64,000 nucleotides of DNA, from positions 69,751 to 133,750 of the forward strand of contig CAZCCI010000001.1 of NCBI GenBank assembly GCA_964497255.1, read 5' to 3'. Positions 20,352-39,997 of the stretch are shown in pieces; position 1 is the stretch's first letter; each line of letters starts with the position of its first letter. Both the position numbers and the translations under genes were made by a program. A model generated the notes under the pieces. That model was not told the origin of the DNA and did not search any database. It was given only the letters and a program-made list of their open reading frames with translations. The DNA is from an uncultured Staphylococcus sp. Its GTDB lineage: Bacteria; Bacteroidota; Bacteroidia; Bacteroidales; Muribaculaceae.

Positions 20352-20399
20352 AAATGAATTAAAAAAGAGGGGAATAACAACTTAAAAAACAATGTTATA

Positions 20400-20669
20400 A
20401 TGACAACAACCGAAATCACCTATCGTGATGAGACCTACACCTGCCGTGTGCTTTCAAGCAATGACGGAGAGCCGCTGATTATCGCCGGTCTTAAACTGCT
20501 TGACGCACTTATGCCGTATCCGATGACCGACAACTGCAACGGGTTTGCCGACAAAGAGGCGGAGAAAATTGATGAAGAGATTTTCTTTTATACCAATGAA
20601 TGTGATTTGAAACTGGATGATAAAAACCTTACTGAACTGATGAGGGCAAGCAATCCTGACTGGTTTTGA
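20400..20669 (+). CDS. Small acidic hypothetical protein
   Basis: ORF directly behind hairpin A1; IDEEIFFY motif shared with 23847 ORF. Confidence 0.75.
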   Translation: MTTTEITYRDETYTCRVLSSNDGEPLIIAGLKLLDALMPYPMTDNCNGFADKEAEKIDEEIFFYTNECDLKLDDKNLTELMRASNPDWF

Positions 20670-20688
20670 CAACTAAAAGAAAAAAGAT

Positions 20689-20985
20689 ATGACACGCAGA
20701 GAAGAAATAGAATCCGCCGCTAAAGATATATTCAAGGACAGCGAATATCCTGTCCCAAATATATGCTGCTTCATAAGAGGTGCTGAGTGGGCAGACAGAA
20801 ACCCATCTCCTGAATGGCATAAATTCACGGATTCCGACTGCAAACCGGAAAAAGAACAGGTAATAATCCTTGCAATAATCAACATGGAGTTCAAGATTGT
20901 TTCTTATCAATTAGTCCGCTACGACCCGATGATTCATTATTCTGGCAATGATAATGTCCGTTGGCTGGCTGTGCCCGAATTGTAG
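20689..20985 (+). CDS. Phage-like hypothetical protein
   Basis: FIRGAEWADRNP..W pattern typical of small Bacteroidetes phage/ICE proteins. Confidence 0.6.
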   Translation: MTRREEIESAAKDIFKDSEYPVPNICCFIRGAEWADRNPSPEWHKFTDSDCKPEKEQVIILAIINMEFKIVSYQLVRYDPMIHYSGNDNVRWLAVPEL

Positions 20986-21066
20986 TATTAGAATATGGGC
21001 GAATATATGAGAAAAACTTCCATAAATCTTATCTCGAAATAATTAATCAATTAATAACGCATATGT

Positions 21067-22128
21067 ATGTCAAAAATAACTTATACTAAAAAAACTCTGA
21101 TAACTCTTGAGAATGGAACATCAGCAGAAGCTCATGCTCCCATGATAATATCAGCAAGCCGAAGCACTGATATTCCAGCCTTTTATGCTGATTGGTTCTT
21201 TAATAGACTTGAGAAAGGATATTCAGTATGGACTAACCCATTTAATTCATTGAAATCCTATATCAGTTACAAAGATGTTAGATTCATTGTTTTCTGGTCA
21301 AAGAATCCTCGCCCTTTAATCCCTTATCTTGATATACTTGATAAAAGAAATATCGGATATTATATTCAGTTCACCATCAACGATTATGAAAAAGATGGAT
21401 TGGAATCCGGAGTGCCTCCACTCTCACAACGAATTGAGACATTCAAATATTTGGCTGAGAGACTCGGCAAAGGACGTGTAATATGGCGTTTCGACCCGCT
21501 TATCCTTACGGATAACATTGATATGGAATCTCTTTTAGGAAAAATATCCAAAATTGGAGAGCAAATTCATGATTATACAGAAAAACTTGTTTTCAGTTTT
21601 GCTGACATATCAATCTATAAAAAGGTCAAATCAAATATGGAAGCAGAGGGAATAAAATACAAGGAATGGAATAAAGATACTATGATTCTTCTTGCAAAAG
21701 AATTATCATCTCTAAATGGGAAATGGAGGTTAGAACTTTCCACCTGTGGTGAAAGTATAAATCTCACGAATTATGGCATTAATAAAAATCATTGTATAGA
21801 CGACCGATTAATTGTGCGTTTCGGACATCAGCATCCCGAACTTATGGAAGCTCTTGGCGTAAAAATCATTACTACCTCTTTATTTGAAGAAGATGATAGC
21901 CGTTATATAAGACTTGATGACGGGAGGTATGCCATAATAACTCAAGATAATCGGGATAGAGGACAACGTGAAGTGTGCGGGTGCATGAAAAGCAAAGATA
22001 TAGGACAGTACAATACTTGTCCGCATCTTTGCGAATATTGCTATGCCAATGCTTCAAAGGCACAAGCTCTCGCAAACTGGAGAACACATATTAATAATCC
22101 ACATGCAGAAACAATCACTGGGATATAG
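21067..22128 (+). CDS. DUF1848 family protein (Fe-S/SPL-like)
   Basis: IISASRSTDIPAFY, FWSKNP, WRFDP, CGCMKSKDIGQYNTCPHLCEYCYAN; AT-rich. Confidence 0.85.
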   Translation: MSKITYTKKTLITLENGTSAEAHAPMIISASRSTDIPAFYADWFFNRLEKGYSVWTNPFNSLKSYISYKDVRFIVFWSKNPRPLIPYLDILDKRNIGYYIQFTINDYEKDGLESGVPPLSQRIETFKYLAERLGKGRVIWRFDPLILTDNIDMESLLGKISKIGEQIHDYTEKLVFSFADISIYKKVKSNMEAEGIKYKEWNKDTMILLAKELSSLNGKWRLELSTCGESINLTNYGINKNHCIDDRLIVRFGHQHPELMEALGVKIITTSLFEEDDSRYIRLDDGRYAIITQDNRDRGQREVCGCMKSKDIGQYNTCPHLCEYCYANASKAQALANWRTHINNPHAETITGI

Positions 22129-22280
22129 CACAATATAATTCCGATTCTTGTTTCTATTCGACCATATGTACTCTAAACATCACATTAAAAGTTTCTCAAC
22201 ACAATTTTTAATGTGTTGTCTGCTTCATAACCCTGTCTCCTCTTATAAATATATTATACCCCTTTTATTGCTGTCCCCCG

Positions 22281-22425
22281 CCCCGGCATACACGCGGATT
22301 ACTTTGGACGAGAGTCTTTCACGGCAATGCTGTATTGCCAAGAAAGACACTCGTCTGTCAAAGCGGATGGCCGAAGAATATCGCTCAGACTCGCTTGCAG
22401 GAAAGCATAGGTTACGCTACTCTCC
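22281..22425. repeat. Structured repeat family D copy 1
   Basis: ctttg-gacgag-agtctttc-ggcaat/attgcc-gaaagac-ctcgtc-caaag hairpin; paralogue at 30496. Confidence 0.6.
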
Positions 22426-22613
22426 ACTTATGCTTATCCTTACAAGTTCCCTTGACCGACACTCTTCCTGACAGCCATCCTATAATCCGCACTGATATGC
22501 CTTCCCTCCCTTCCTTCCTTACTTTTTTATTCATAGTCAGCCTATTCTATACTGCGCCAGGTTTTCCATTATAATAACAGAGCCTTTTTTAGATCTGGGG
22601 GTATCAAGTGCCA

Positions 22614-22786
22614 TCCGAAAGGGAGCCGTCGATTTTTATGTCGGCGAAGTTAAGGCCGCTCGTGGATATGCCAAGGCCCGGCGGCACGTGCCACGGCATC
22701 ACATGTGGTGCTGTGGCAGCCTTGTCTCAATCCACCGTTTCACGTCCTTTGAGATTTGCCGAAAAAATTGATTCGGCCCCTTACGG
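22614..22786 (+). promoter_or_regulatory. Long hairpin family A copy 2, candidate ssDNA promoter
   Basis: CGAAGTTA (22645-22652)-N19-CAA; arms pair caaggc/gccttg, gtggat/atccac, tcggcgaa/tttgccga. Confidence 0.7.
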
Positions 22787-22862
22787 AAACGGACTTTGAA
22801 GAAAGGGAAAAAATCAATCGCTTCACAGAAAACATAACATTAATCTTTTAGCATCAACGAAA

Positions 22863-23273
22863 ATGGAAGCTAACAACACCAACGCCAACAATGGCAAGAA
22901 GAACATCATCAACTCAACCGTAGTCAGTGGCTTCGTAGCCACCGAGCCGAAAATCACCACCTGCACCGAGGCAAGCGTTATCCGCTTCGCTCTCGCAGTC
23001 AGCAACCGGGTTACCAACAAGGCGACAGGAGAGGTTACACGCCAGTCCTCACTTATCACAGTCGAAAAGTGGGCAAAGAATACCAACCTCTCATCATTCG
23101 ACGCTATCTGAAAGGGCATCCTCGTTGAAGTCAAAGGCTACCTCAAACCTAACGAATGGAAAAACGCCGAGGGCGAAAGCCGACACCGTATTGTTCTCGC
23201 TGCAAGAAGCGTGAAGCACATTGCGAAGCCGGCATCAATGATGGAACCGCAACCTGAAGCAATCGCTTCCTAA
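22863..23273 (+). pseudogene. ssb: Second SSB paralogue with in-frame TGA at 23109-23111
   Basis: Reads ...SFDAI*KGILVEVKGYLKPNEW..., aligning to SFDRLKKGEHITVTGYFKPEEW of 19683. Confidence 0.8.
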
Positions 23274-23333
23274 TCCGAAGTCTCACATTGCCCGAGGCTC
23301 ACTCTCCGAGCCTCGGGTAAACATTAAAGCGAC

Positions 23334-23504
23334 ATGGAAGATTTTGAGGACAGTGTAATCGGATGCTTCTGCACTCTGCTTGACAGTTGGCGAGACCATG
23401 ATTGCGGAGAAATCGTTGAGGACTCCGGGAATCAATATGTAGTGCGACTGACATCAGGACAACAAATTACCTTGAGCCATGATGATGTGGTAATCTGTGA
23501 CTGA
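23334..23504 (+). CDS. 56-aa acidic protein (below ORF-track cutoff)
   Basis: MEDFEDSVIGCFCTLLDSWRDHDCGEIVEDSGNQYVVRLTSGQQITLSHDDVVICD; paralogous to 36487 ORF. Confidence 0.7.
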   Translation: MEDFEDSVIGCFCTLLDSWRDHDCGEIVEDSGNQYVVRLTSGQQITLSHDDVVICD

Positions 23505-23656
23505 CTAAAAACAATAATCGACAATCCGACCTTACTGCGCCGGATTGCCGGTATTTAACGTAGCAAGGTTCCTGTTATACTTTCTTCTTCCCCCTTTTTA
23601 ATGATGTAAGTGCCGCGCTTTTGTAATAAAACGACGGAAGGTCATTTGTAAAATTT

Positions 23657-23826
23657 TCCGATGGCCCGGGAGGGCTGCCGGTGATTCTGCGGCAAAGTTG
23701 GAGGCCGGGGTAAATGTCAAATCGGGGCCGGAGGTCACGGCTTCGCTGTGAATTTGACTCATTGCCCCTTGCGCCTCCCCTGTAATGCCTGAAATCTTAA
23801 GACAGCCCTCCGGCGGACCAAACGGA
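23657..23826 (+). promoter_or_regulatory. Long hairpin family B copy 1, candidate ssDNA promoter
   Basis: CAAAGTTG (23693-23700)-N17-CAAA; gtcaaat/atttgac, gggg/cccc, ggaggc/gcctcc, ggagggctg/cagccctcc. Confidence 0.7.
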
Positions 23827-23846
23827 TCTAACGGGAGGGATAAAAA

Positions 23847-24293
23847 ATGAACTATATGAAAGTAATATGTACTCAATGCGGAGGAATAAACGTAGCGTGT
23901 GAAGCTATGATTAATCCCAATGACAAGAAATTCCGTAATTATACGGATGACGCGTTTCTTTACGGATGGTGTGAGGACTGCGGGAACGGAGTTGTCCTCT
24001 CCAATGTCGATGAAGTGAAAACGGACATAGATAACCTCTATGCTGATTATCGTGCCGAACATGATACAGAACCTCTTTATGCGCAATGTGAAATCGTATG
24101 GAAAAAGGACGATGATTATTATGCTTATCCCAAACCGATGACCATAAAACTATCTTCCGACATTGACGATGCCACCGATGAAAAAATATTCTTCTATTGC
24201 AACGGCATCGAGGCACTTAAATCACTCGTTGAATTTGGTCGTGAGGATTTTATGCTTACTGAGTGCCTCCACTTAACAAGAGAACTGAAATAA
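23847..24293 (+). CDS. Zn-ribbon acidic hypothetical protein
   Basis: CTQC..CEDC; C-terminal TDEKIFFY motif. Confidence 0.75.
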   Translation: MNYMKVICTQCGGINVACEAMINPNDKKFRNYTDDAFLYGWCEDCGNGVVLSNVDEVKTDIDNLYADYRAEHDTEPLYAQCEIVWKKDDDYYAYPKPMTIKLSSDIDDATDEKIFFYCNGIEALKSLVEFGREDFMLTECLHLTRELK

Positions 24294-24313
24294 TATCATT
24301 AAAAATCAAAATC

Positions 24314-24796
24314 ATGCACTCTTCAGTTTATCAAATAACAACCGAAAAGGTTGAAGAAGGTGGATTACTTGATGAAGACACCTTACACCAGGGAGACTGT
24401 TCGGGACTTGACTATTGCTCGAATATTGACAACGAGGAACGCAGGGAGCGTATAGAAATCCTCGTGAACAGGATACTGCCCGAAGGAATGTTCACGCTCA
24501 TTGATGAAAACACAATCCGTTACAACGGCGGCGTGTAAATCTGGCAGGAGGAATGGGTCAAGCTGATAAAAGAAAAATGCTCGCTTGTGACTGCAGACAA
24601 TATACAGAAATGGGAAACGCTTTATTACCTTCAGGAAGCGATAGAAAATCCGCTTGATGCAGGAAGCAGGTTCTACGATGACAACTGCGGATATTCTTCC
24701 TATTCGGAGAAATCGGGAGAGTTCATGAAAAGTCTGAATAACCTTGAGGCAGGAACACTGCTTTATATAGGCGGTGTGGTTGACTATCATTATTAA
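24314..24796 (+). pseudogene. Acidic hypothetical gene split by in-frame TAA at 24536-24538
   Basis: ORFs 24263-24538 and 24587-24796 share a frame; intervening codons IWQEEWVKLIKEKCSL are open. Confidence 0.65.
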
Positions 24797-25104
24797 GCTA
24801 TGAGTCGGATAGTTTATCCGGCATGACGGACAGGCGGGATTTTGCCCTGCCTGCCCCTTCAGTGGATATGGCACAAACATCTGAGACCATATCCTTTTAT
24901 ATCAGAGAGTTCTCCTTTAAGCGCACCCGCTTTCCTCTTATATTTTCTCGTTCTTGCTCTTTTTTATATTCCTGCGCATGACAGGACTAACATTTATGTT
25001 CATAATTACTTGTCCCCCTATAGGTTTTGTCAATATCGTCAAGCCGCTACTCTTATAAATCTCCTTTTATAAAGCCATATCCCATTTTTAGGAGAATCCT
25101 TTTC

Positions 25105-25300
25105 TGTCCGGAACCGTCACTGCCGGTGGTTATCGGCGCGAAGGTCAGCATCCGGGCTTATCAGCCAAGGTTGCACGGAGTTTCTGCGAGATTTTACATC
25201 CATACTGTAAAATCATCTTGAAAACCTTGTCCCTAAAGCCTCTCGGATGCTCCTGTGTTGCGCAGATAATCACCTCATGGACGGCTCCTGAAGGAGCAGG
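25105..25300 (+). promoter_or_regulatory. Long hairpin family C copy 1, candidate ssDNA promoter
   Basis: CGAAGGTC (25139-25146)-N19-CAA; shared core AAAATCATCTTGAAAACCTTGTC. Confidence 0.65.
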
Positions 25301-25327
25301 AAAGTGAGGGAAAGAAAAATCAGATAT

Positions 25328-28300
25328 ATGGCATACAACAAACACAAATCATTTGAGGATAATGTCAAAGCGATAGAAACCGCACTGACCGTCCTCTCGC
25401 AGAAGCGAAAGGCTACCGAGCCGAAGAAAGAAACAATGTCGCTCTATTCGGGCTTCGGAGGTATCAAAGAGGTGCTGAACATCGGCACTGAAAAGCCAAT
25501 CCCTCAAAGCATGGAGGAAACGGCAAACCGACTGTTGACAGTCCTCGGCAGTTTCCCAACCGACAAAACCCATTGGTGCGACACAACCATTGAAAGCATC
25601 AAGACATCGGTACTGACCGCATTTTACACCCCTGCATTTATAATAAACGCAGTGGCACGGCAGATACAGTCCACGTTCAAGACACACGGACTTACGATGC
25701 GCACGTTCCTTGAGCCGAGCGCAGGCATCGGCGGCTTCCTGCCTGTTGCCATGAACAACACCAAGTCATACGCTTTTGAAAAGGACACGCTGACAGGCAT
25801 AATCCTCTCCCTGCTCAACGACGATACCGAAACCTATACGGCAGGTTTTGAGAGCATCGGGGAACAACGGTTTGAGCATACATCTTTTGACGTAATCGCC
25901 TCAAACATACCATTCGGCAATTTCCGTGTGTTCGATGCAGACCTGTGGAAGAAAGGCGGCATACATGAACAGTCCACCAAGACCATACACAACTACTTTT
26001 TCGTAAAGGCAATGGAACTGCTCAACGAGGGCGGACTGCTTGCTTTCGTTACATCGAGGGGCATAGCCGACACTCCCGGCAACAAGTTTGTGCGTGAATA
26101 CCTTGTGAACAACGCCAACCTCATAAGCGCAGTCCGTCTCCCCGACAACATCTTCATGCAGACAGGCGGCATTGAGGTCGGGAGCGACCTGCTCATATTC
26201 CAAAAGGACACAGCCAAATCCGGCCCCACATCAAGGGAGGCGATGTTTCTCCAGACCTCAAAGGAAAAGCACGGCGAGGAAAATACGGAACCATCAAACC
26301 GTCTTTTCACCATGCCGAAAACAACACTGTCAACCGACAGCCGCATTGTGAAAAACCAATACGGCAAGCTGACACGCAGATATTCATGGTCGGGCGGCGA
26401 GGCTTCAATGGCTGACTATCTCGCAGCCATACTGAAATACGATTTTGAACGCAATTACAGGCCAGGGCTTTTCTCCAATCCGGGAATTGGCAGACAGGCG
26501 CAGATGTCGCTTTTCGGAGATTTGGACATCGCGTCGGCAAAAGGACGGCGTGGCTATACCGGGGAAATGCCCGAATGGTTCAAAGAGGGCGCACTGGTAG
26601 TTTTCGAGGGTCAGGTGGGAACGCTTGAATACCGCAAGTCAACCCATTATGAAGATATTGCCGTCGATTTCGTGCCTGTTGACAACGGAAGCGTGAACAT
26701 CGAGAGGGCAAACGACTATATGCCGTTGAGGGGTGTCTATTTTGAACTTTCCAACAAGGAGAGGGAGGAAAAGACCGAGCAACCCGAATTAAGGGAGCGA
26801 CTGAACAGCCTTTATGACGCTTTCACCGCCAAATGGGGCTTCTTCCACGATAACGACAACAAGGAATTTATCTCTCTTGACAGCCTCGGAAACGAGGTGC
26901 TGACACTTGAAATGGCTGTCGGAAGGGAGATTTACAAATCCGACATCATGCGTGAGCCGGTGGCTTTCAAAAAGACGGACACATCGGTGAGGCTTCTCCC
27001 CATGGAAGCACTCGCAAGTTCTCTGAACTATCACGGTCAGGTCAACATCGACTATATGTGCAAGACCGCAGCAATGACCGAGGACGAAATCACCGGAGCA
27101 CTCAAGAACGAGATTTTCTACAACCCAATTACAGACTGTTGGGAGCATAAAGGCCGTTTCATCGGCGGCGACATCGTTACCAAACTGCGAGATGTTTCCG
27201 AACTGCTTCCGTTCCTTGACGAGCGCAAGAGGTCTTTTGCCGAAATTTCTGCAAAGGCACTTTCCGATACGTTGCCCGAACCTGTGCCGTATGAGGAACT
27301 TGACATAAACATGGGCGAAAGGTGGATTGACCCGAAACTATACGCCTCTTTTGCGTCATATCTTTTCGGGGTGGATGCCGAGCTGATGTACTTTGACATA
27401 AACGACACCTACCTGCTCCGGCTCACGGGATATTCAGCCGTCGCCTACAACACTTATTCCGTAAGGAACTGCAATGGCGAGGATATGTTTGTCTATGCGC
27501 TACAGGACACCGTACCCGAATTTACAAAAGAGGTGTATATCAACGGCGAAAAGACCCGTGTAGCCGATGAAGATGCCATACAGGAGGCAGCCGCCAAGAT
27601 ACAGGAGATACGTTCCACGTTCCGTGACTGGCTCGACCGTCAGCCCCTGCCTGTCCGTGACCGGCTTGTAGCCGAATACAACAGCCGCTTCAACTGCTAT
27701 GTGCGCCCGTCCTACGACGGATCGGCTCAGACTTTTCCCGGCCTCACATTGGAACATTTTCCATACGACAGCCTATATCCATCCCAAAAGGATGCCGTGT
27801 GGATGATAAAGCAGAACGACGGAGGCATCTGCTGGCATGAGGTCGGTGCCGGAAAGACAATGATAATGTGCGTGGCGGCTTATGAAATGAAGCGTCTCGG
27901 CATCGTCAACAAGCCTATGATTATCGGGCTCAAGTCCAACGGGCATGAGATAGCAGACACTTTCCGCAAGGCATATCCCATGGCTAAGATACTCTATCCC
28001 GGACGCGAGGATTTCACGCCTGCAAACCGCAAGGAGATTTTCTCGCAGATAAAGAACAACAACTGGGATTGCGTGATACTGACCCACGACCAGTTTTCAA
28101 AGATACCCCAGTCACAGGAAACTATGGCTGCAATCTTCCGGGAGGAACTTGCCGATGTCGAGCGTTGCCTTGAGGTTCTCGAGAACTCCACCATGCGCTA
28201 CCGCAGCTCTAAGATGCAGACAGGGCTTGAGAAACGGCAGGAGAACCTGTCCGCCAAACTCGCCGAATTGCGTCACGACATAGACCAACGCAAAGACAAC

Positions 28301-30495: not shown

Positions 30496-30650
30496 CCCGG
30501 CATCCGCGTGGCTGACTTTGAGCGAGAGACGGCCTCGGCAATATTCCATGTTGCCCGGCCCGACACTCGCTTTCACAGCGGTAATCCGAAAAATGCCTGT
30601 CGGCCTCGAAGTCAGTACAGGCATAGGTTCCGTTTCCCTCCACTTACGCC
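30496..30650. repeat. Structured repeat family D copy 2
   Basis: agcgag/ctcgct, ggcc/ggcc, ggcaata/tgttgcc stems; shared tail GCATAGGTT.CG.T.C.CTCCACTTA. Confidence 0.6.
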
Positions 30651-30867
30651 CGTACTTCCATATCTTCGTTGACCGGCAATTTCCCTGATGGCTTACCTCT
30701 CATCCACACATGGATGCCTCCCGCCCTTCTTCCCCTTCTATTAACATGCTCCTTTTATATCGCGGATCAACTCCCTGAGCACCTGTTTCAGATATGCCGG
30801 GACATGCCAGTACACTTATATCCATCTCCGGGAACAGTTATATCCTGTACGGCTTTACAGATACCGT

Positions 30868-31035
30868 CCGTGACGGTTGCCGTGATTTTTGAATCGGCGA
30901 AGTTAAGGCCGCTCGTGGATATGCCAAGGCCCGGCGGCAGCGTGACGGGGCTTCGCCCTGTCAGCCTTGTCGTAATCCACCTGTGCAGCGACCTTCCTGA
31001 CTTGCCGAAAAAATCAGTCCGACAACCCTCCCGGA
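30868..31035 (+). promoter_or_regulatory. Long hairpin family A copy 3, candidate ssDNA promoter
   Basis: CGAAGTTA (30898-30905)-N19-CAA; left arm nearly identical to A2. Confidence 0.7.
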
Positions 31036-31096
31036 AGGAACTGATAAAAGTAAGGAAGAAAAAACAATATTTATCAACATCTTAAAAGTCAAGATT

Positions 31097-32794
31097 ATGG
31101 AGACCAAAGCAGTCAGAAAAGAAAACGTATCACTCGCCCTCATTCAGCCGAGCGCATTCAACCCTCGCAAGACCTTTGACGAGGCAGCCCTCAAGGAACT
31201 CTCCGACAGCATCGCCTCGCAGGGTGTCCTTCAGCAAATCGGCCTACGCCCCATTGCGGACACCGACCGCTACGAGATTATCTTCGGGGAGCGAAGATAC
31301 CGTGCGTCCGTCATGGCAGGGCTTGAGACTATCCCTGCCGACATATACGATGTTACCGATGATGAAGCGGTTGAAATCGCCGTCACCGAGAACCTTCAAC
31401 GTGAGGATGTCTCACCGATTGAGGAAGCAAACGCATACCAGAGCCTCATGGACAGCGGAAGATACGATGTGCAGTCATTGGCTGTGCAGTTCGGCAAGTC
31501 CGAGGCATACATACGCACACGACTGAAATTCACATCACTTATCCCCGAAATAGCGCAACTGCTGGAGGCTGACACTATCACAATGAGCGTGGCTTCCGAG
31601 ATATGCAGATACGGAACTGACATACAGAAAGAGGTTTACGAAAAACACCTCTGCGAAAATTCTTATGGCTACGGCTCATGGCGTGGGCTGAAAGCCTCCG
31701 AGGTCGCAAGGCGCATAGAGCAGAATTTCACAACCGACCTTGAGCGTTACTCATTTGACAAGGGAATGTGTGCCTCATGCCCCCATAACACCAAGAACCT
31801 ACTGCTTTTCTGCGAGGGAACTTGTGGAAAATGCACCAACCGCAAATGCCTTGAGGATATGAACACATCGTATCTCGTTGACAAGGCGGTGGATATGATA
31901 GCCCTATATCCTGCCTACCCTTTGCGACAAGGGCGATTTGGCACAAACGAGGCGGCGGTTGAGCGTCTTTCGGCTATGGGACATGAGATTGAAACTCCGA
32001 ACACATACATTCAGCCGTACCCTGCAATGCCGCAGGAACCGACTGCGGAGGAATACGAAACTGCCGAAGACTTCGCCGAGGCTCATTCGGAGTATGAACA
32101 AGACCTTTCCGAGTATAACGATGCCGTGGAGGATGTCAATGCCAGGGCAGAGAACGGAGAAATCATTGTCTATATTGTCATTGAAAAAAATGACATAAGC
32201 ATAGGATATGCGATGAAGCCGTCCGAGGCTTCCATGGACGGCACTGCTGACAACAAGGCGGACGACCCCATAGTGAAACTCGAGAAACAGGACATGCGCA
32301 ACAAGGAAATCGCCGTGGAGAAAACCGTGGCAGACACCAAGAAGCAAATCCTTGAGGCCGACATGACCGAGACCAAGTTCGGGCAGGACGAGGAAAGAAT
32401 GGTGTATTATTTCATGCTTTCATCGCTCCGAAAGGAACATTTCTCGGCTGTGGGGCTTACCGAGAAGCAGGCAGGCTGTCTTTCCGATGATGAAAAAATG
32501 GAGATAGTCAGCAATCTCAACGCCAGGACAAAGGCTGTAATCCGCAGGGATTATCTTATAGCCAATTTCAAGGAGGCATTCGGGAACAACACAGTTGCAA
32601 AACTGCTGCTCGGCTTCGCAAAGAAACACATGCCCGAACAGCTTGCCGAGATTGAGAAAGGCTATAACGAGGTCTATGAGAAACGGCATCAGCGCATAGA
32701 GGAAAGAAAAGCGGCTCTCATGCCGAAAAACGAAGAGCCGACTACGGAGGCAAACGAAACCTCCGAAGATGAAGCCAACGAGGAAGCGGCTTAA
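31097..32794 (+). CDS. parB: ParB/RepB/Spo0J family protein
   Basis: FNPRKTFDE, GVLQQIGLR, IIFGERRYRAS, ENLQREDVSPIEEA, HTH. Confidence 0.88.
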   Translation: METKAVRKENVSLALIQPSAFNPRKTFDEAALKELSDSIASQGVLQQIGLRPIADTDRYEIIFGERRYRASVMAGLETIPADIYDVTDDEAVEIAVTENLQREDVSPIEEANAYQSLMDSGRYDVQSLAVQFGKSEAYIRTRLKFTSLIPEIAQLLEADTITMSVASEICRYGTDIQKEVYEKHLCENSYGYGSWRGLKASEVARRIEQNFTTDLERYSFDKGMCASCPHNTKNLLLFCEGTCGKCTNRKCLEDMNTSYLVDKAVDMIALYPAYPLRQGRFGTNEAAVERLSAMGHEIETPNTYIQPYPAMPQEPTAEEYETAEDFAEAHSEYEQDLSEYNDAVEDVNARAENGEIIVYIVIEKNDISIGYAMKPSEASMDGTADNKADDPIVKLEKQDMRNKEIAVEKTVADTKKQILEADMTETKFGQDEERMVYYFMLSSLRKEHFSAVGLTEKQAGCLSDDEKMEIVSNLNARTKAVIRRDYLIANFKEAFGNNTVAKLLLGFAKKHMPEQLAEIEKGYNEVYEKRHQRIEERKAALMPKNEEPTTEANETSEDEANEEAA

Positions 32795-33034
32795 TATCCA
32801 TAATCATAAGACGATTGCAGGGGCTGTCATACGGCCTCTGCTTTCTTTATTCTGACTACACCGGTATATCCATTTATGACGGTGCCTCCATTCCGGGCCG
32901 CTCAAGCCTCTTATACTGTTTATGCCATTTCAATTACTCTTTTAATCAACGGGGGCACTGTTGATGAATCTGATTTAACGTCTGTCAGCCTTTTATAAAT
33001 TGCGGTTATTCCACTTTTAATCCTGCGCCTGTGA

Positions 33035-33190
33035 TCCGGGAGATGCCGTCCGTCGATTGTCACGGCAAAGTTGGAGGCCGGGCCAAATGTCAAATCATAG
33101 TCGGAGATCACGGCTGTCACCGTGAATTTGCCTTATTGACCCTTTTCGCCTCCCCTGAAAATGCCTGAAATCGGTCAGACAGCCCTCCGA
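33035..33190 (+). promoter_or_regulatory. Long hairpin family B copy 2, candidate ssDNA promoter
   Basis: CAAAGTTG (33066-33073)-N17-CAAA; homologous to B1. Confidence 0.7.
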
Positions 33191-33232
33191 CAGACCAAAA
33201 GGTCTGAAAAAGAGGGATAAAAATGTAAATTT

Positions 33233-33799
33233 ATGGCGAAAACGATAGACATTGAGCTTCAAAAGCAGTTGGATAAACCGCAGACATGGTTCTGCAAATA
33301 TTTTCCTGCACGCATACGCAACGTAGGAGAACGGGAGATAGCCGACCGTCAGTTGGTTTTTGATTTCAAGGACGGACGGGCATACGAGGAAGTCGCACGG
33401 CGCACGGCGACCGCCATGACTGAGCGTTACGGAGCAACGTGCGCCGACATTGTGTTTTCTCCCGTTCCGGCATCTACAAGAGAGAAGAACGAGATACGCT
33501 ACAAGGCTTTCAGCCAAATGGTGTGTGAACTCACCGGTGCAATAAACGGTTACGACCATGTATCGGTTTGTGGCGATAGAATGACCGTTCACGAGAACCG
33601 CAAGGCAGAGAGGGATGTCCGCAATGCTGTTGTCATTGAGTTTGACCCGACTTTTTTCAGCGGTAAAATGGTTGTGGTATTTGATGATGTGATAACGAAA
33701 GGTTTGAGTTATGCCATATATGCCAACCGCCTTGAAAGCCTCGGAGCCAATGTGCTCGGAGGTGTTTTCCTCGCAAGAACCCATTACAAAGTGAGATAA
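33233..33799 (+). CDS. Phosphoribosyltransferase-fold (ComF-like) protein
   Basis: FSPVPAS, PRPP loop VVVFDDVITKG. Confidence 0.8.
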   Translation: MAKTIDIELQKQLDKPQTWFCKYFPARIRNVGEREIADRQLVFDFKDGRAYEEVARRTATAMTERYGATCADIVFSPVPASTREKNEIRYKAFSQMVCELTGAINGYDHVSVCGDRMTVHENRKAERDVRNAVVIEFDPTFFSGKMVVVFDDVITKGLSYAIYANRLESLGANVLGGVFLARTHYKVR

Positions 33800-33800
33800 T

Positions 33801-34301
33801 ATGGTTCAATCAAAATATGATAAGTCTGTATCCGCTTGCTTCAGCGGACACCGCATCGTCCCATACTTTCATTTGAGACGACTTGAACGGCAATTAAGGA
33901 CAACGATAATCTCGGCATACGCTGACGGCTGTCGAAATTTCTTCTGCGGCATGGCTATGGGCTATGATTTGCTGGCAGCGGAAGCCGTCCTTTCTCTACA
34001 GTCTGAATTGCCGGATTTACGGCTCATTGCCGTTATTCCGTATCGTGGACAGACCGAGAGGTGGAGAGATGCCATGAAATCCCGGCATAATGACATTCTG
34101 CGTAATGCAAATGATACTGTGATTCTGAGCGAACACTACTATCAAGGCTGTCTGCTACGGCGCAATGACTATATGGTAGTCCGCAGCTCACGACTTATTG
34201 CATGGTATAACGGAAATCCTAAAGGAGGTACGTTTTACACCTGCCGTATAGCTAAGGCTAATGGATTAACGGTTATAAACCTGTATGACAGCCGTAATTA
34301 A
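33801..34301 (+). CDS. SLOG family (YspA/DUF1273-like) protein
   Basis: CFSGHR, GMAMGYDLLAAE, LRRNDYMV, GGTFYT. Confidence 0.85.
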   Translation: MVQSKYDKSVSACFSGHRIVPYFHLRRLERQLRTTIISAYADGCRNFFCGMAMGYDLLAAEAVLSLQSELPDLRLIAVIPYRGQTERWRDAMKSRHNDILRNANDTVILSEHYYQGCLLRRNDYMVVRSSRLIAWYNGNPKGGTFYTCRIAKANGLTVINLYDSRN

Positions 34302-34381
34302 TCGGCTGTTGTAATTTGCATCAATATCTCATATTTACTTTGATTAGGTAAAGATGCAATTTTGTGGCAAAATGGTGTCTT

Positions 34382-34996
34382 TTATAATTCGTTATAAATC
34401 CTGTCGAAAATCCGGCGCAGCCGGGGTTCGTCCTTTATAATCTCACGGAGTGAATTGAGCCTTTCTACGTTGGGCGACTCAGGGAACCAAAGTTTCAGAT
34501 AGCCTCCCTCGGCATATTTCTCATGCAGATGGCCAAGCGTGCGCTGCCAGTGGCCCTCTTTGTCAAGTTCGGGATAATGGTCGAGTCCGTATTGTACCGT
34601 CCTTTCGATTATCTTCTCCGGTTCGATGTAGCGATCTCCTTCTGCGACAATCTTGCCGTATATGCTTCGAGGTTCATGGTCGGACGATGCCCGGTGGTCT
34701 TCTACCGCCTGTGCCATTGTCTCTATTTCCTCTTGTGTGAACCACTCATGCAATCGTGGATCTTCCCGTACTATCCGCCCAGATTCAAGATGATGTGTCT
34801 TCCTGTCGATGGCAAGCCCTAAATCATGGAACGCTGCTATGGTATATACCATTTCCATGTTGAGGGCGTAATGCCGTGCAATGTCAAGGCTCTGCGCTAT
34901 GACCGTGCGGGCATGATCCTCCCGATGGGCCTTGTCGAATCCGTTGTACCTGGGCAGTATCTCCCTTTCTATATATAATGTCAGCCCTGTATTCAT
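34382..34996 (-). CDS. HD-domain phosphohydrolase
   Basis: HREDH, AFHDLG, EDHRAS, AEGDR. Confidence 0.85.
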   Translation of the reverse strand: MNTGLTLYIEREILPRYNGFDKAHREDHARTVIAQSLDIARHYALNMEMVYTIAAFHDLGLAIDRKTHHLESGRIVREDPRLHEWFTQEEIETMAQAVEDHRASSDHEPRSIYGKIVAEGDRYIEPEKIIERTVQYGLDHYPELDKEGHWQRTLGHLHEKYAEGGYLKLWFPESPNVERLNSLREIIKDEPRLRRIFDRIYNEL

Positions 34997-35048
34997 TGAA
35001 ATTATACGTTTCTATTCCAATCCTCTTATTAATGGATTTTGATTTTGT

Positions 35049-35081
35049 AATATCGGTAATTCTTGCAAAATTACCGATATT
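35049..35081 (-). promoter_or_regulatory. Palindrome overlapping a -7 element for the HD gene
   Basis: aatatcggtaat...attaccgatatt; CAAAATTA at 35066-35073 = TAATTTTG on - strand. Confidence 0.5.
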
Positions 35082-35194
35082 TTCTCTATTCATTCATTTG
35101 TTAGGTATAATTATTTAAAGTGAGAAAAACTGCTTAGACGGCAACTATAAAACAACCCCTAATAATGGAATTTGTGATGCTTTTGCACATATTA

Positions 35195-35413
35195 TTCTTT
35201 CTCCGGAACCTGTCCGGTCGGGTTTATAGGCGCGAAGTTTGGCATTGGGGAGCATAGCCAAGGTCGTGCCGAAGTTTCCGCGCCATTTTGCCGGTATCCG
35301 GAAAAATCGTCTTGAAAACCTTGTCACTTGCTCCTTTGAAAGATGCCCTTGTGATGCGCAGATAAACCCCTCGCGGACGGCTCCGAAAGGAGCAATAAAC
35401 GGGAGGGGAAGAA
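35195..35413 (+). promoter_or_regulatory. Long hairpin family C copy 2, candidate ssDNA promoter
   Basis: CGAAGTTT (35233-35240)-N18-CAA; gggtttat/ataaaccc, ggcat/atgcc, caaggt/accttg. Confidence 0.7.
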
Positions 35414-35435
35414 TAAACATTCAAACAATACAGAT

Positions 35436-35630
35436 ATGCAGACAAAAAAAATGACAGTCGAACAAGGAAAGCGTTGCAACATAAGCCGTTTTCCGAACTT
35501 TCACCGTTCCGGCTCTATCAAGGGTATGAAAAAATTGTACTACGGCAAAGATGCTTTGCTTGTACGTTGCGGACAATACATCTACAACGTGACTTCAGAA
35601 CCAAGCATATATAATCAGGCAACAATCTAA
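35436..35630 (+). CDS. Small basic hypothetical protein
   Basis: FPNFHRSGSIKGMKKLYYG..LVRCGQYIYNV; first ORF after hairpin C2. Confidence 0.7.
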   Translation: MQTKKMTVEQGKRCNISRFPNFHRSGSIKGMKKLYYGKDALLVRCGQYIYNVTSEPSIYNQATI

Positions 35631-35642
35631 TACGATACGGCT

Positions 35643-36176
35643 ATGAAGAAACTGATAATCTGGACAAGCGATACCTATCTTGACGATGACGCAAGAGAGG
35701 AATATCAGCAATGTAAACGAGAAGCCATTGATGATGATGACTACTGCGTTACTGACCGTGAGTGGGCAGAAGTGGTAAACGACTATCTCAATGACGAGCG
35801 CGGAAACCTTAACAAAGATGTTGAAGGCGTGATAATTGCTTTTGCTGATGTCGGCAGGTGGGACGGCAGACGGCAGGGCTACAAGATACTTGGTAGCACC
35901 ATAAATGATATTTTCAATATCTCGGAAGATAACAACGAATGGTACTCTGACGGCAACAACATCCGTGCTATACTGTCCCACCATGACGCATCGCACTATG
36001 TGCTCTACCGGGTGGCGAAAGACCGTGAGACAGCGGAGCGTATCGCCAAGCAAATATACAACCGCGAGATAGACGAGGCAGGCTTCCGCAAGCGCACTCG
36101 CTCCCTGCACCCCTATGTCGCAGAGATTTACGGCTGGAAAGCCGGTCGTTTCAATAAAGCCCGGAAAGCGGTATGA
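35643..36176 (+). CDS. Hypothetical protein
   Basis: Coupled ORF; ADVGRWDGRRQGYK, HHDASH. Confidence 0.75.
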   Translation: MKKLIIWTSDTYLDDDAREEYQQCKREAIDDDDYCVTDREWAEVVNDYLNDERGNLNKDVEGVIIAFADVGRWDGRRQGYKILGSTINDIFNISEDNNEWYSDGNNIRAILSHHDASHYVLYRVAKDRETAERIAKQIYNREIDEAGFRKRTRSLHPYVAEIYGWKAGRFNKARKAV

Positions 36177-36490
36177 AAAGATATAAATACATCAAACATA
36201 TTGTTGACAGGCTGACCAGTTCGGACAGCAACAATGAGGAATTTACTCTCTACAACCATCTTGTAGGAAAACAAAGCGGCATGGGAGGTTTCTTCGCCGC
36301 CACCATATATTCAGGCACTGACCGATATTCGGGAGAGGTCGCCGACTTCAGTTATGACTATTGGACACACAGTCTTTATATCGAGGATGCTGAAAGCAGA
36401 CATGCGGCCGATGCCATAATCAGTGCTTTCAAATCAATCTATCCATGCTGTCTGAAAATCATAGATGACACACAAAAAGAAGATATATGA
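36173..36490 (+). CDS. Hypothetical protein
   Basis: ATGA overlap with both neighbours. Confidence 0.7.
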   Translation: MKRYKYIKHIVDRLTSSDSNNEEFTLYNHLVGKQSGMGGFFAATIYSGTDRYSGEVADFSYDYWTHSLYIEDAESRHAADAIISAFKSIYPCCLKIIDDTQKEDI

Positions 36491-36699
36491 TGATGTTTCC
36501 CGATTTCAATGACCCTGCCTGTTCGGAGCAGGGTCATTGCACCGACTTTCCCGAATATGGAAAGCAGTGCGACCTTATTGAGCCGTGGCGCGGTTATCGC
36601 CGTGGTACCATTGTGGCACAGACTCCGAAAGGCTTTGTCATACAGTTAAGTTCCGGAGCCGAGATAGATGTCTATCCCGATGAAATAGAGATTGACTGA
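36487..36699 (+). CDS. Small acidic protein, paralogue of 23334 ORF
   Basis: C.L...WR....G.IV.......V..L.SG..I....D pattern shared. Confidence 0.7.
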   Translation: MMMFPDFNDPACSEQGHCTDFPEYGKQCDLIEPWRGYRRGTIVAQTPKGFVIQLSSGAEIDVYPDEIEID

Positions 36700-36800
36700 T
36701 GCAACAGACCGCTGACTATATAGGCACGGTTTTGCCGTCCCTATGCGCGGCGGCTGCGCCCATAACCTCTTATATAAACCAATGGATTTCTTCGATATTT

Positions 36801-36852
36801 AACTATATAACGGCAAAATATTTGGATTTTTGCCGTTGTATAGTTAACTTTG
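36801..36852 (+). promoter_or_regulatory. Operator-like inverted repeat and -7 element of AbiE operon
   Basis: aactatataacggcaaaa-N9-ttttgccgttgtatagtt abutting TAACTTTG (36845-36852). Confidence 0.75.
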
Positions 36853-36873
36853 CAGCTGCAAAAATGAACTCTC

Positions 36874-37605
36874 ATGATTGAGACAAGAGCCGCGATATTA
36901 ACTTACGCAAAAAGCCGGGAATCATTCCGGTTCACTGAGTTATTGTCATATTTGAACAGTTTGTTCGAGATCTCCAAAGTGACGCTGTCATGGCATCTGA
37001 GAGAACTGGTTAAGGATAACAGCTTATTCAAACTTGGAAGAGGAATATACACTTTGCAAAATGTTCAGACACGCAAATATGTCCCGCAGCTTGGGGACAA
37101 AATAATAAAAGTCGGGAAGGAATTATCCGCCTCATTCCCCTTTATAACGATAAGTGTTTTTGACGGAAATGTTCTTGAAGGTTTTCAGCATCATTTGTCA
37201 TTGAACAACCTACATTACATAGAAGTTGAACGGGATGCGATGGAACCGGTTTTTCATTTTCTCCAGAAACAGGGATATGTAGCATATCTTAATCCAAATA
37301 AAGATTTTGTATATAACTATATTTCTATGTCGGATGAAGCATTTATTGTTAAGCCTCTTATCTCAGAGTCTCCGTTGATAGATTTCCGAGGCGTAAAGAC
37401 CCCCAGCTTAGAAAAAATACTTGTAGATGTCATTTGTGACAGTGATATGGATTATCTTCATGGGAGCGAGTGGTATAGGATGGTTGATAATGCACATTCC
37501 ATGTATGCCATAAACCGAACCTCGATGCTTCGTTATGCCTCTCGTCGCAATGCAAAACAAACTATTGAAAAGGCTATTGAAAATTTAGGAACGAATTATG
37601 ATTAA
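36874..37605 (+). CDS. AbiEi-like antitoxin (wHTH, DUF6577-like)
   Basis: N-terminal wHTH LVKDNSLFKLGRGIY; TPSLEKILVD; upstream of AbiEii-like gene. Confidence 0.75.
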   Translation: MIETRAAILTYAKSRESFRFTELLSYLNSLFEISKVTLSWHLRELVKDNSLFKLGRGIYTLQNVQTRKYVPQLGDKIIKVGKELSASFPFITISVFDGNVLEGFQHHLSLNNLHYIEVERDAMEPVFHFLQKQGYVAYLNPNKDFVYNYISMSDEAFIVKPLISESPLIDFRGVKTPSLEKILVDVICDSDMDYLHGSEWYRMVDNAHSMYAINRTSMLRYASRRNAKQTIEKAIENLGTNYD

Positions 37606-38659
37606 GGAACATTGTTTCGGCAAAGACTGGTTCCAGGCCATGTCGAAGAAATACAAATATAATGACCTTGGAATTATTGAGAAAGTAATCAGGGCATACG
37701 CATTGTTGGACTTGCTGGCTCGTTCCGGATGTCCGTATATTTTTAAGGGAGGCACATGTACGGGTCTCATCCTCGGAGACAGAACCAGACGGCTCTCAAT
37801 AGACATTGACATAATCTGTCCGCCAGGAACCAATATCGAGGAATATCTCGGCAAAATCAAGGAGTTCGGGTTTACCCGAACAGAATTGATTGAACGACGG
37901 CAGGCAGGTAAAGATATTCCTAAAAGCCACTCCAAGTTCTTTTATCAAATAGCCTATACCGACAGAGCAAATCAGGAGTCATATATTCTTCTTGATGTTC
38001 TATACGAGGATACTCATTATTATAAGGTTAACCAGACAGAGGTTATCAACCAGTTCATAGAACTTGACTCAGAACCTTCTATTGTCAAGGTACCTTCAAT
38101 AGGAGACATTCTTGGAGACAAACTGACAGCTTTTGCTCCGAATACTACCGGTATCCCTTACTATAAAAACGGGAACTCGCGCTCCACCGAGATTATGAAA
38201 CAGGTATATGACATAGGCAGGTTGTTTGATGCAGTCAAAGATCTTAAAATAACGACATACTCGTTTAAGCGAATTGCGCAAGTTGAGCTTGGATATCGAA
38301 ATCTGGGCTCAGATTTAACATTAATATTCGAAGATATTCGCCTGACGGCTATGCTGCTTGCCACAAGAGGTCTCGAGGGTGAAGGTGATTTTCCCTTGTT
38401 GCAGGACGGCATCAAACGTCTCAGCTCATTCATATATGAGAACAAATATTTTATCGAGGATGCTATTGTCGATTCTACAAAGGCGGCATATGCTTCGACC
38501 TGTATTGAGAAAGGAGTCACCGGCATTCGCAAGTTTTCGCCTTCAGACCTAACTGCAGACATGACTATTTCAAAGGCACTCCCGGGTAGGCTCAACAAAC
38601 TAAAAAAGTCAAACGCAGAAGCATTCTACTATTGGTATCTTATAGACAATATGTTGTAG
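37598..38659 (+). CDS. AbiEii-like nucleotidyltransferase toxin
   Basis: IFKGGTC, RRLSIDIDI, ILGDKLTAF, KQVYDI. Confidence 0.88.
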   Translation: MIKEHCFGKDWFQAMSKKYKYNDLGIIEKVIRAYALLDLLARSGCPYIFKGGTCTGLILGDRTRRLSIDIDIICPPGTNIEEYLGKIKEFGFTRTELIERRQAGKDIPKSHSKFFYQIAYTDRANQESYILLDVLYEDTHYYKVNQTEVINQFIELDSEPSIVKVPSIGDILGDKLTAFAPNTTGIPYYKNGNSRSTEIMKQVYDIGRLFDAVKDLKITTYSFKRIAQVELGYRNLGSDLTLIFEDIRLTAMLLATRGLEGEGDFPLLQDGIKRLSSFIYENKYFIEDAIVDSTKAAYASTCIEKGVTGIRKFSPSDLTADMTISKALPGRLNKLKKSNAEAFYYWYLIDNML

Positions 38660-38676
38660 TCTATATTAGACTGATT

Positions 38677-38719
38677 ACTATACAGCGGCAAAATTGAATA
38701 TAATTTGCCGTTATATAGT
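38677..38719. repeat. Second copy of the AbiE palindrome, downstream of toxin
   Basis: actatacagcggcaaa-N11-tttgccgttatatagt. Confidence 0.75.
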
Positions 38720-38982
38720 GCGAGAATAATTGTTTTAGAATCAACGCTCAATATATCGTTCATGCAGTTGACTGAAACGACAACATAGACCAATAATCCA
38801 CATGTGATAGGGTTAATACTTTGCCGTCTGAATTGCACATCAGGCGGCTTTTCCCATATTATAATCTCACTTTCAATCACCTTTGTAAATTGGGGGACAA
38901 GTACCATTCTTTTGCCTTCCATTACAAGTTTGGCATAGTGAATGGAATTTTATACACTGGTTGCCTCTTATATGATTGCAGT

Positions 38983-39194
38983 TTCTATTCTCCCCGGGAG
39001 CAGTCTCAGTGGTTTATGGCGCAAAGTTCGGCATCCGGGAGCGACGGCCAAGGTCAGGCGTTGTTTCGGCGAGATTTTGCAGTTACCTAAAAAATCATCT
39101 TGAAAACCTTGTCTTTCGCCCCTTGTCGATGCCCCTGTGATGCGCAAATAAACCCCTCACGACAGCTCCATCGGAGCAAGAATGAGAGGGAGAA
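38983..39194 (+). promoter_or_regulatory. Long hairpin family C copy 3, candidate ssDNA promoter
   Basis: CAAAGTTC (39022-39029)-N19-CAA; ggtttat/ataaacc, gcgca/tgcgc, ggcatc/gatgcc, caaggt/accttg, gatttt/aaaatc. Confidence 0.72.
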
Positions 39195-39222
39195 AAAACA
39201 TTCACTCCAAATATCGTAACAG

Positions 39223-39480
39223 ATGAACGAAAAAGAACTCGCACAGGCGATTGAGACCGCAGTCAACAACTACTCTTTCGACCCGAAGAAAGTAGCCTCG
39301 CAAGTACCCATGATGCACCGTACTCTCCAGCAGAGCGTCTATCGGCTCTGCAAGGCTATCATCGAGGTTATCGGGGCTGACGACTATGCCACCGACCCTC
39401 GAAACCAAGCCTCTCACAACGAGGCGAAGGCAATGCTCAACTACCTCAAGGAGCATGGACGCTCTATCCCCATGATTTGA
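39223..39480 (+). CDS. Hypothetical protein
   Basis: MHRTLQQSVYRL..DPRNQAS; first ORF after hairpin C3. Confidence 0.75.
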   Translation: MNEKELAQAIETAVNNYSFDPKKVASQVPMMHRTLQQSVYRLCKAIIEVIGADDYATDPRNQASHNEAKAMLNYLKEHGRSIPMI

Positions 39481-39503
39481 CAACCCATTAAAACCATACG
39501 AAT

Positions 39504-39755
39504 ATGAATAAGAAATTCTACCTTGTAACAATGCTGATTGAATGTTCAGCAGAATGTATAACCGACACTCACGCCCTTTATGGAAACTATGAAAAGGCTA
39601 AGGAAGCGATGGCTGTCGAAATCGAGGAAGCTGCAGAGAACTTTGACGGACGAGAGGGAGAAACTCTTGTGGATGCCGAGACCTGCCGTGAATGGCGCAC
39701 CGAAGATGGTTACGGCTATACCGTAGGCATCGAAGAACTCACTCCGATAGAATGA
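39504..39755 (+). CDS. Small strongly acidic protein
   Basis: Glu-rich 83-aa ORF in operon. Confidence 0.7.
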   Translation: MNKKFYLVTMLIECSAECITDTHALYGNYEKAKEAMAVEIEEAAENFDGREGETLVDAETCREWRTEDGYGYTVGIEELTPIE

Positions 39756-39997
39756 AGACCATGGAAACCAGAGTAGAAAAAGTTCCCACTTACGCCCTGT
39801 GTTATCTGGTTAACGACGATGCTACCGGCCTCACAGAGCAGGAAGTCAACGAGATTGACCGCCTGCTCCGTGAGCAATCCGTGGAAATCGTCTGTCCGCC
39901 TTCAGATGAAGAATGGCAACCATATTTCAGCAACTCTCCGTGGTTCGGGATGCCATGTGAGGTGATTGATTGCGACATAGTATATCGTGTAACCTGA
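39752..39997 (+). CDS. Small acidic protein
   Basis: ATGA overlap; KVPTYALCYLVNDDATGL..PYFSNSPWFG. Confidence 0.7.
   Translation: MKTMETRVEKVPTYALCYLVNDDATGLTEQEVNEIDRLLREQSVEIVCPPSDEEWQPYFSNSPWFGMPCEVIDCDIVYRVT

Follow-up and report, generated by a model that had tools for sequence, protein, structure and literature searches.

Seven short, acidic open reading frames (ORFs) in a 64-kb stretch of Muribaculaceae DNA (contig CAZCCI010000001.1 of assembly GCA_964497255.1; hereafter the window, meaning the whole stretch that was analysed) are best explained as cargo carried in the leading region of a gut Bacteroidales integrative element that is conjugative or mobilisable. Judged by the conservation of their sequences, the seven ORFs represent real, conserved genes, one of which is broken in the window copy, and they fall into six families of small, soluble, acidic proteins: A, B/E, C, D, F, and G. 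As to function, we tentatively favour the possibility that these candidates act early and stoichiometrically to inhibit proteins of the recipient's defence or DNA surveillance, a reading that we hold with somewhat less than even confidence.

An initial annotation of this DNA had pointed to seven short, acidic ORFs, all of which were found at the expected starts on the + strand, and its hand counts of aspartate plus glutamate proved exact (13/56 for the ORF at 23334 and 20/83 for that at 39504). These two residues make up 19-24% of each of the seven ORFs, with a net charge of -8 to -14, which reaches -0.2 per residue, and an isoelectric point (pI) of 4.05-4.38. Only one of the two paralogue pairs that had been proposed stands. 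The ORFs at 23334 and 36487 (B and E) are the only pair of candidates that scores by blastp (1e-7), and iterative searches merge them, whereas those at 20400 and 23847 (A and C) share only a 12-column DExIFFY motif. Their paralogy was rejected at an hhalign probability of 5-7%, with shallow as well as enlarged profiles, and a relationship between F and G was likewise considered and rejected.

Conservation was assessed in 120 loci fetched around relatives of a large N6-methylase/SNF2-helicase fusion protein (MTase-helicase) that is encoded near the candidates (labels such as L001 denote loci used for comparison). Measured against relatives in these loci, every family is under purifying selection, with pairwise dN/dS values of 0.03-0.4. 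Candidate copies are co-oriented with the MTase-helicase gene throughout the set, the sole exception being one DUF6926 copy in L099.

The first candidate, A (20400..20669, +; 89 aa, pI 4.11, net charge -11), directly follows hairpin A1, described below, and its family numbers at least 131 clusters (90% identity) with a constant length of ~90 aa. All members are unnamed and lack a Pfam match, dN/dS is 0.08-0.25, and the C-terminus carries a conserved NP(E/D)WF(D). The idea that this NPEWF(D) tail mimics the tip of a single-stranded DNA-binding protein (SSB) was dropped, as the element's SSB used as a query did not find the host SSB. B (23334..23504, +; 56 aa, pI 4.05, net charge -11, dN/dS 0.03-0.17) has an N-terminal tail that is variable in sequence and persistently acidic. 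Its paralogue E (36487..36699, +; 70 aa, pI 4.25) has a longer, Cys/His-bearing N-terminus, and its start overlaps the stop of the preceding gene (ATGA). The B/E family comprises at least 141 clusters and was found in 29/301 genomes of the window's own taxonomic family and in 2/301 across the order.

C (23847..24293, +; 148 aa, net charge -14) has 43 relatives, 26 of which were aligned, and most likely starts at M4 (23856), as in most relatives, giving 145 aa. In this alignment the N-terminus forms an invariant four-cysteine zinc ribbon (C8, C11, C42, C45) and the C-terminus a conserved α/β domain with an IFFYCNG..LKSL..EDF motif. D (24314..24796, +) is a 160-aa acidic gene whose frame is interrupted by TAA at 24536-24538, where relatives read GAA; this leaves an N-terminal half (24314-24538, 74 aa) and a C-terminal half (24587-24796) in the same frame. 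The ORF at 24314 and a GTG-initiated ORF at 24587 group at 90% into a single cluster of proteins that otherwise measure 160 aa, and intact 160-aa relatives have a net charge of -12 to -20 and dN/dS of 0.13-0.41. The split is probably a genuine nonsense mutation; an assembly slip is unlikely because the split products are recorded on 3 contigs. F (39504..39755, +; 83 aa, pI 4.26, net charge -13, dN/dS 0.04-0.10) represents an orphan family with just 49 clusters at 50% identity among 1.84 billion proteins. G (39752..39997, +; 81 aa, pI 4.10), whose start overlaps the F stop, belongs to Pfam family DUF6926 (PF21977; 7.4e-33, 113.1 bits where the cut-off is 27, covering positions 1-73 of the 73-position profile), a rare family found in 1/301 genomes sampled across the phylum, namely the window's own.

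Ordinary chromosomal genes (purine synthesis, glycine cleavage, mnmE) fill the first 15 kb of the window. At 15.3 kb the chromosome gives way to an integrated mobile element, which opens with an HTH_17 protein followed by a tyrosine integrase (16320-17423). Between this integrase and a Mob_Pre (MOBV-type) relaxase (44307-45797, +; Pfam PF01076, E 1.2e-12) lies a block, from ~17.7 to 44 kb, that is transcribed nearly entirely from the + strand. The seven candidates sit 4.5-24 kb left of the relaxase and are transcribed toward the presumed origin of transfer (oriT) just upstream of it. An oriT usually lies just upstream of the relaxase gene, which enters last (PMC11541004). Because the relaxase sets the presumed polarity of transfer, the 18-44 kb block is presumed to be the leading region, with the candidates on the presumed-oriT side opposite the relaxase. 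The - strand would then enter 5'-first from ~44.2 kb and serve as the template for the + strand genes. Location, orientation, hairpins, and neighbouring SSB, MTase-helicase, ParB, and AbiE genes all fit the leading-region setting that the initial annotation had assumed, while the position of oriT and the polarity are ones that we infer.

Three repeated non-coding families in the window fold as imperfect hairpins of ~150-200 nt (DNA parameters, z -3.5 to -5.5, - strand), and eight such hairpins lie directly upstream of eight operons, which hold all of the candidates. The earlier statement that the acidic ORFs stand behind hairpins therefore holds for every candidate. Hairpin A1 (20170..20399) heads A, a gene at 20689, and a DUF1848 gene; A2 (22600-22862) heads a broken second SSB gene (SSB2) and B; and A3 (30850-31096) heads the gene for a ParB-like protein. 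Hairpin B1 (23640..23855) heads C and D, and B2 (33010-33232) heads a gene at 33233 and a YpsA gene. Hairpin C1 (25100-25303) heads the MTase-helicase gene, C2 (35230..35420) heads genes at 35643 and 36173 followed by E, and C3 (39000-39222) heads a gene at 39223 followed by F and G. Several gene junctions show an ATGA overlap or a gap of ~20 nt. An Rfam scan of the window matched no family, hairpins included, and blastn of the window hairpins against distant loci found no similarity; distant elements carry similarly stable hairpins (z -5 to -6) upstream of B-like, F, and G operons. By analogy with plasmids, the hairpins are putative single-stranded DNA (ssDNA) promoters. The searchable literature holds no discussion of DUF6926 or of these hairpins.

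Leading regions are enriched in anti-defence genes that are encoded on the transferred strand behind ssDNA promoters (PMC11541004), and the reading that we favour follows this precedent. The hairpin-headed operons would be oriented with the transferred (-) strand as template, and because of this orientation the candidate proteins would be made in the recipient minutes after entry, from ssDNA, together with SSB, MTase-helicase, and ParB. They would then act as stoichiometric inhibitors that bind and neutralise recipient proteins threatening the incoming DNA. Possible targets include restriction and other defence nucleases, signalling-based immunity, and recombination or SOS functions. For B and E, the protein-binding part may be the SH3/Tudor-like barrel with its acidic tail; C may act through its zinc ribbon and an α/β domain that it shares with phages.

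The pattern of gain and loss bears on this proposal. Where MTase-helicases are at least 96% identical, about half of the backbones carry the C-D pair and the others lack it, and the presence of A, F, and G varies too; G is found beside F in the window and upstream of the MTase-helicase gene in a 64%-identity class. Relative to L082 and L045 (~9600-10030), which are otherwise at least 98% similar, the region 23640-25306 of the window contains an insertion that comprises C, D, a spacer, and hairpin C1 and is placed exactly between the 3' end of hairpin B1 and the sequence ahead of the MTase-helicase start; in L082 and L045 hairpin B1 continues straight into that start. Both insertion junctions of this C-D cassette carry the common hairpin-end motif GGGAGGGA..AAAAAT(G), which suggests that hairpin ends may act as cassette joints. 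These cassette-like junctions are the most unusual feature of the locus. At the right end of the block, F and G (39504-39997) differ from their counterparts in L003 (22030-22523) by a dS of ~0.5-1.7, with 80-89% amino acid identity, despite a 98% identical MTase-helicase. Because such a dS stands beside so similar a backbone gene, the F-G end of the leading region is taken as a divergent allele brought in by recombination.

A similar setting recurs in more distant elements. There, B/E members occupy the element borders in the company of a 97-aa gene and of genes for RadC or LPD28, SSB, ParB, and YpsA, and a Mob_Pre relaxase gene follows a few kb downstream. A Phocaeicola member of the C family lies between integrases and genes for SSB, DUF6926, DUF7688, and MTase-helicase.

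Relatives of A and C also occur in phages. BS-TP1, an isolated temperate phage of Bacteroides salyersiae described in PMC12694917, has the C-terminal domain of C in its gp72 (E 4e-8), and a crAss-like phage gives a weak match; arrays of small unknown genes surround both phage copies. A homologue of A with 47% identity is one of the small co-directional genes in a BS-TP1-like phage region (L135/L136 7001-8699), where the reverse transcriptase shares 85% identity with the BS-TP1 enzyme. This homologue is located two genes upstream of a protein that fuses a crAss001_48 domain with a Tad2-like anti-Thoeris domain (PF11195, 8.6e-19), the order in L135/L136 being the A-family gene, two unknown small genes, and the fusion gene. 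The array is likely a phage anti-defence cluster. Virome scaffolds labelled 'Bacteriophage sp.' (MT83xxxx) were rejected as cases of phage carriage, as these records are UNVERIFIED. At least one of them, L131 (MT835483.1, 62000-82219 of an 82-kb scaffold), has the element's relaxase (46% identity) and SSB in common with the window, along with several leading-region proteins; because of its relaxase and SSB genes, we classify MT835483.1 by gene content as a fragment of a conjugative or mobilisable element and not as a phage. Taken together, the variable presence of the genes, their exchange as modules, and their occurrence in conjugative elements and phages alike form a circumstantial pattern of the kind expected of counter-defence or host-takeover genes.

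These same observations weaken a different account, one that we regard as unlikely though still credible, in which the candidates are the element's own establishment or housekeeping factors. Under this account they would serve as regulators of early transcription, in complementary-strand synthesis, recircularisation, integration, or partition, as partners of SSB, ParB, or MTase-helicase, or as host reprogrammers. The operons that the candidates share with SSB, ParB, and DUF1848 genes, and the adjoining MTase-helicase gene, would suit such a role, and so would the folds, since SH3/Tudor/KOW-like barrels and zinc ribbons are common among proteins that handle nucleic acids or transcription. There is also a precedent in the leading-region protein YfjB, which reprograms the host and has a non-defence role (PMC13370423). 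Core functions would be expected to be universal, yet C-D, A, F, and G come and go among nearly identical backbones, and the families are missing from more distant elements that retain the SSB/MTase-helicase core. Furthermore, the A and C families are present in phages, which do not conjugate.

The cassette junctions and phage relatives also invite a bolder version of the inhibitor proposal. In it, the hairpins would be joints as well as ssDNA promoters: a hairpin plus one to three small genes could form a unit that is swapped among Bacteroidales conjugative elements, with genes shared with temperate Bacteroides phages, by recombination at GGGAGGGA..AAAAATG ends. The result would be an integron-like, entry-timed arsenal in which A-G represent new families of recipient-immunity inhibitors. 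We consider this full scheme to be a long shot.

The acidity that first drew attention to these ORFs is enriched to a real yet modest extent and is a weak discriminator of function. A net charge of -0.10 per residue or lower occurs in 0.7% of 1644 long ORFs of the same genome and in 9% of coding-like small ORFs outside the element, and because 9% of the genome's small ORFs are thus equally acidic, acidity alone is weak evidence. Within the block, 7 of ~18 small genes are acidic (binomial P~6e-4), and crude automatic gene calling gives 4/16 instead (P=0.05). Acidity is kept across families A, B, C, and D. The broader notion that small leading-region proteins are generally acidic in Bacteroidota relatives of the element was rejected, as just 5-15% of the conserved small + strand families in more distant element classes reach such acidity.

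Family searches and structural models add a second line of evidence. Scans of all candidates against Pfam, NCBIfam, and PHROGs returned DUF6926 for G as the sole family match. Running each member of the enlarged A, B/E, and F alignments against Pfam added no further family, F remained without a Pfam or PDB match with a 25-sequence profile, and profile searches of all six families against PDB sequences found nothing significant. Matches to 'Pizza' and S-layer entries of the PDB were rejected as short repeat or compositional similarity. No candidate matched the ArdA profile (PF07275) in Pfam at E <= 0.1.

Structure predictions (AlphaFold) cover B and C. The B model is a confident five-strand barrel (pLDDT 79) with an acidic N-terminal tail, which Foldseek aligns at TM ~0.7 to KOW, Tudor, PWWP, and myosin-N SH3-like domains in the PDB. 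The fold class agrees with a score of 24.7 bits for B against Pfam Myosin_N, below the 27-bit cut-off, and 43/56 B/E family members show sub-threshold matches to the same profile. Four B/E family members (P0139, P0213, P0229, and P0218) carry the public names 'ribonuclease P' or 'glyoxalase', which do not fit a free-standing SH3-like barrel and are presumably annotation errors. The C model (pLDDT 75) consists of an ill-defined zinc ribbon followed by a well-defined α-β-β-α-β domain. Its best matches in BFVD are uncharacterised Caudovirales proteins (E 3e-3), and its best Foldseek match in the PDB (E 0.6), resembling the little finger of Y-family polymerases, was rejected as noise. Structure prediction plus Foldseek, the check that the initial annotation had proposed, revealed for B and C no resemblance to Ocr, ArdA, or any solved anti-CRISPR protein (Acr) or other solved inhibitor.

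It is improbable that the candidates are strict DNA mimics, whose surface carboxylates would line up like the phosphates of a DNA backbone to titrate out enzymes that bind DNA, in the manner of Ocr, ArdA, and some Acrs. Composition speaks for mimicry, in that pI values of 4.05-4.4 are strongly acidic (pI < 5), net charge extends to -0.2 per residue, and the A, B, C, and D families keep their acidity; in addition, very short DNA-mimic anti-restriction proteins exist that are active down to ~one third of the length of ArdA (PMC12548430). However, no candidate matches ArdA or another mimic in Pfam or has a sequence relative in the PDB, and B is a compact five-strand barrel whose acidic residues are concentrated in the sequence-variable N-terminal tail. 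The C model matches no solved mimic, distant G copies are near neutral, and the background of equally acidic small ORFs noted above applies here as well. The earlier claim of DNA mimicry is unsupported beyond composition.

We give equally little credence to a role as antitoxin-like or immunity partners that would buffer the element's own AbiEii, MTase-helicase, or phosphoribosyltransferase (PRTase)/SLOG pair during entry. Typical antitoxins are small and acidic, and E lies immediately upstream of the AbiEi/AbiEii pair in the window; toxin-antitoxin (TA) genes are common in leading regions (PMC11541004). The AbiE pair (36874-38659) is missing from L003, L001, and L053, the homologue of the gene at 39223 following E after ~360 nt in L003 and L001 and after a longer, different interval in L053. 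Because of this absence, the pair is best read as a cassette inserted between E and hairpin C3, and E is still present in L003, where the cassette is absent. AbiEi is, moreover, already the cognate antitoxin, the partners of the candidates vary (as with G, which is beside F in the window and upstream of the MTase-helicase gene elsewhere), and no candidate matched a TA family in Pfam or NCBIfam.

Least probable is that all of these families amount to decaying ORFs, or ORFs with no function, in a degenerating element, since the two nonsense mutations in the window copy (D, and SSB2 at 23109-23111), the E frameshifts in L001 and L052, and the fragmentary B/E copies in other genomes stand against dN/dS values of 0.03-0.4 in every family over many loci, and against tens to >100 constant-length 90%-identity clusters for each of A, B/E, and C; decay is thus largely refuted for the families and holds for D and SSB2 in the window copy.

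Several observations nevertheless weigh against early inhibition of recipient defence, the reading that we continue to favour. First, acidity is just ~4-fold above the small-ORF background, is weaker in distant F copies (-8), and is nearly lost in distant DUF6926 copies (net -3), and it is confined to the 5-15% of small + strand families noted above for more distant element classes. Second, no sequence or profile match to a known anti-defence protein was found for any family in Pfam, NCBIfam, PHROGs, or the PDB. The modelled B fold is a generic SH3/Tudor/KOW-like binding module, and Foldseek found no PDB match for the C model. Third, the genes are dispensable once the element has integrated, because D and SSB2 are broken, E is frameshifted in two loci, and B/E fragments occur elsewhere. 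Finally, YfjB shows that leading-region proteins can have non-defence roles, and other such roles include SOS inhibition and replication priming. The suggestion that these ORFs are anti-defence candidates is therefore sustained in part. Setting, conservation, cassette structure, and phage sharing speak for it, while the families lack a link to known anti-defence or mimic families, acidity is weak evidence, and D is a pseudogene in the window copy.

The remaining genes of the element provide the context for these proposals. The source genome spans 2.48 Mb in 63 contigs, and the nearest relatives of its MTase-helicase (25304, +; 1670 aa) are from Muribaculaceae and other Bacteroidales assemblies. 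An intact SSB gene (19683-20075, +) precedes A, and its product has a basic tail (..KKSSKKSKKAA) in place of an acidic tip. The acidic tip of bacterial SSBs recruits host partner proteins. SSB2 (22863-23111, +) is cut at codon 83 by an in-frame TGA (23109-23111), which is AGA in relatives encoding 136 aa, so that the leading-region genes of the window's element copy carry at least 2 nonsense mutations, in SSB2 and candidate D. Further + strand genes encode DUF1848 (21067), the ParB-like protein (31097, 565 aa), the YpsA/SLOG protein (33801), DUF6577/AbiEi (36874), and AbiEii (37598). Beyond the relaxase, the - strand encodes two ArdC-N/zincin proteins, M23 peptidases, and a Toprim primase.

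One neighbour deserves separate mention. The 188-aa protein encoded at 33233 contains a phosphoribosyltransferase-like VVVFDDVITKG motif and is translationally coupled to YpsA/SLOG (33233-34301), and distant elements L123-L125 have the PRTase+SLOG pair as well. The pair has the look of a conflict module centred on nucleotides, and some of the acidic ORFs are arguably weaker anti-defence candidates than it is.

DNA exchange among gut Bacteroidales is intensive, and how their conjugative elements evade recipient defences is largely unstudied; the literature searched held no paper on it. The analysis sorts the candidates into six protein families, supplies alignments, two structural models, conserved settings, and phage relatives, and marks one pseudogene. 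If defence inhibition holds for even one family, that family would be a new anti-defence family and could possibly aid DNA delivery into gut commensals that are hard to transform. If none inhibits defence, the set would still mark an entry-timed, hairpin-driven gene programme.

Comparison with known systems places the individual proteins first. DUF6926, of which G is a full-length member, has no function assigned in Pfam, so membership explains nothing. The A homologue near the Tad2-like protein is an association only, since A itself has no similarity to Tad2, and no Tad2-like gene was found among the window proteins scanned. B and E share the five-strand architecture of small SH3/Tudor/KOW barrels, with TM ~0.7 to the KOW5 domain of SPT5, the Tudor domain of 53BP1, and PWWP domains, and differ in being free-standing proteins of 56-70 aa with an acidic tail that are confined to Bacteroidales mobile elements. 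Like ArdA/sArdA and Ocr, the candidates are small, very acidic, and early on mobile DNA; unlike them, they have no Pfam ArdA or PDB match, and the models predict a barrel for B and a zinc ribbon plus α/β domain for C. The Ocr fold is helical, and the ArdA domains are also unlike modelled B and C; neither the Ocr nor the ArdA structure is among the matches listed by the fold searches with B and C.

The closest parallel to the locus as a whole is with the anti-defence islands in the leading regions of plasmids (Samuel et al. 2024, PMC11541004). Like them, the window block has a single orientation and would adjoin oriT, in its presumed position, on the side opposite the relaxase; its genes include SSB, a methyltransferase, and a toxin-antitoxin pair as well as many small unknown ones, and hairpins precede its operons. 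Unlike those islands, the window element is integrated, belongs to Bacteroidales, and carries a Mob_Pre/MOBV relaxase, and none of its small proteins falls into a known anti-defence family. Its hairpins also differ from Frpo in lacking sequence similarity, forming three local families, and matching no Rfam family. Leading-region cargo behind hairpins resembling ssDNA promoters is a kind of system known from plasmids, of which the candidates described here would be new Bacteroidales members.

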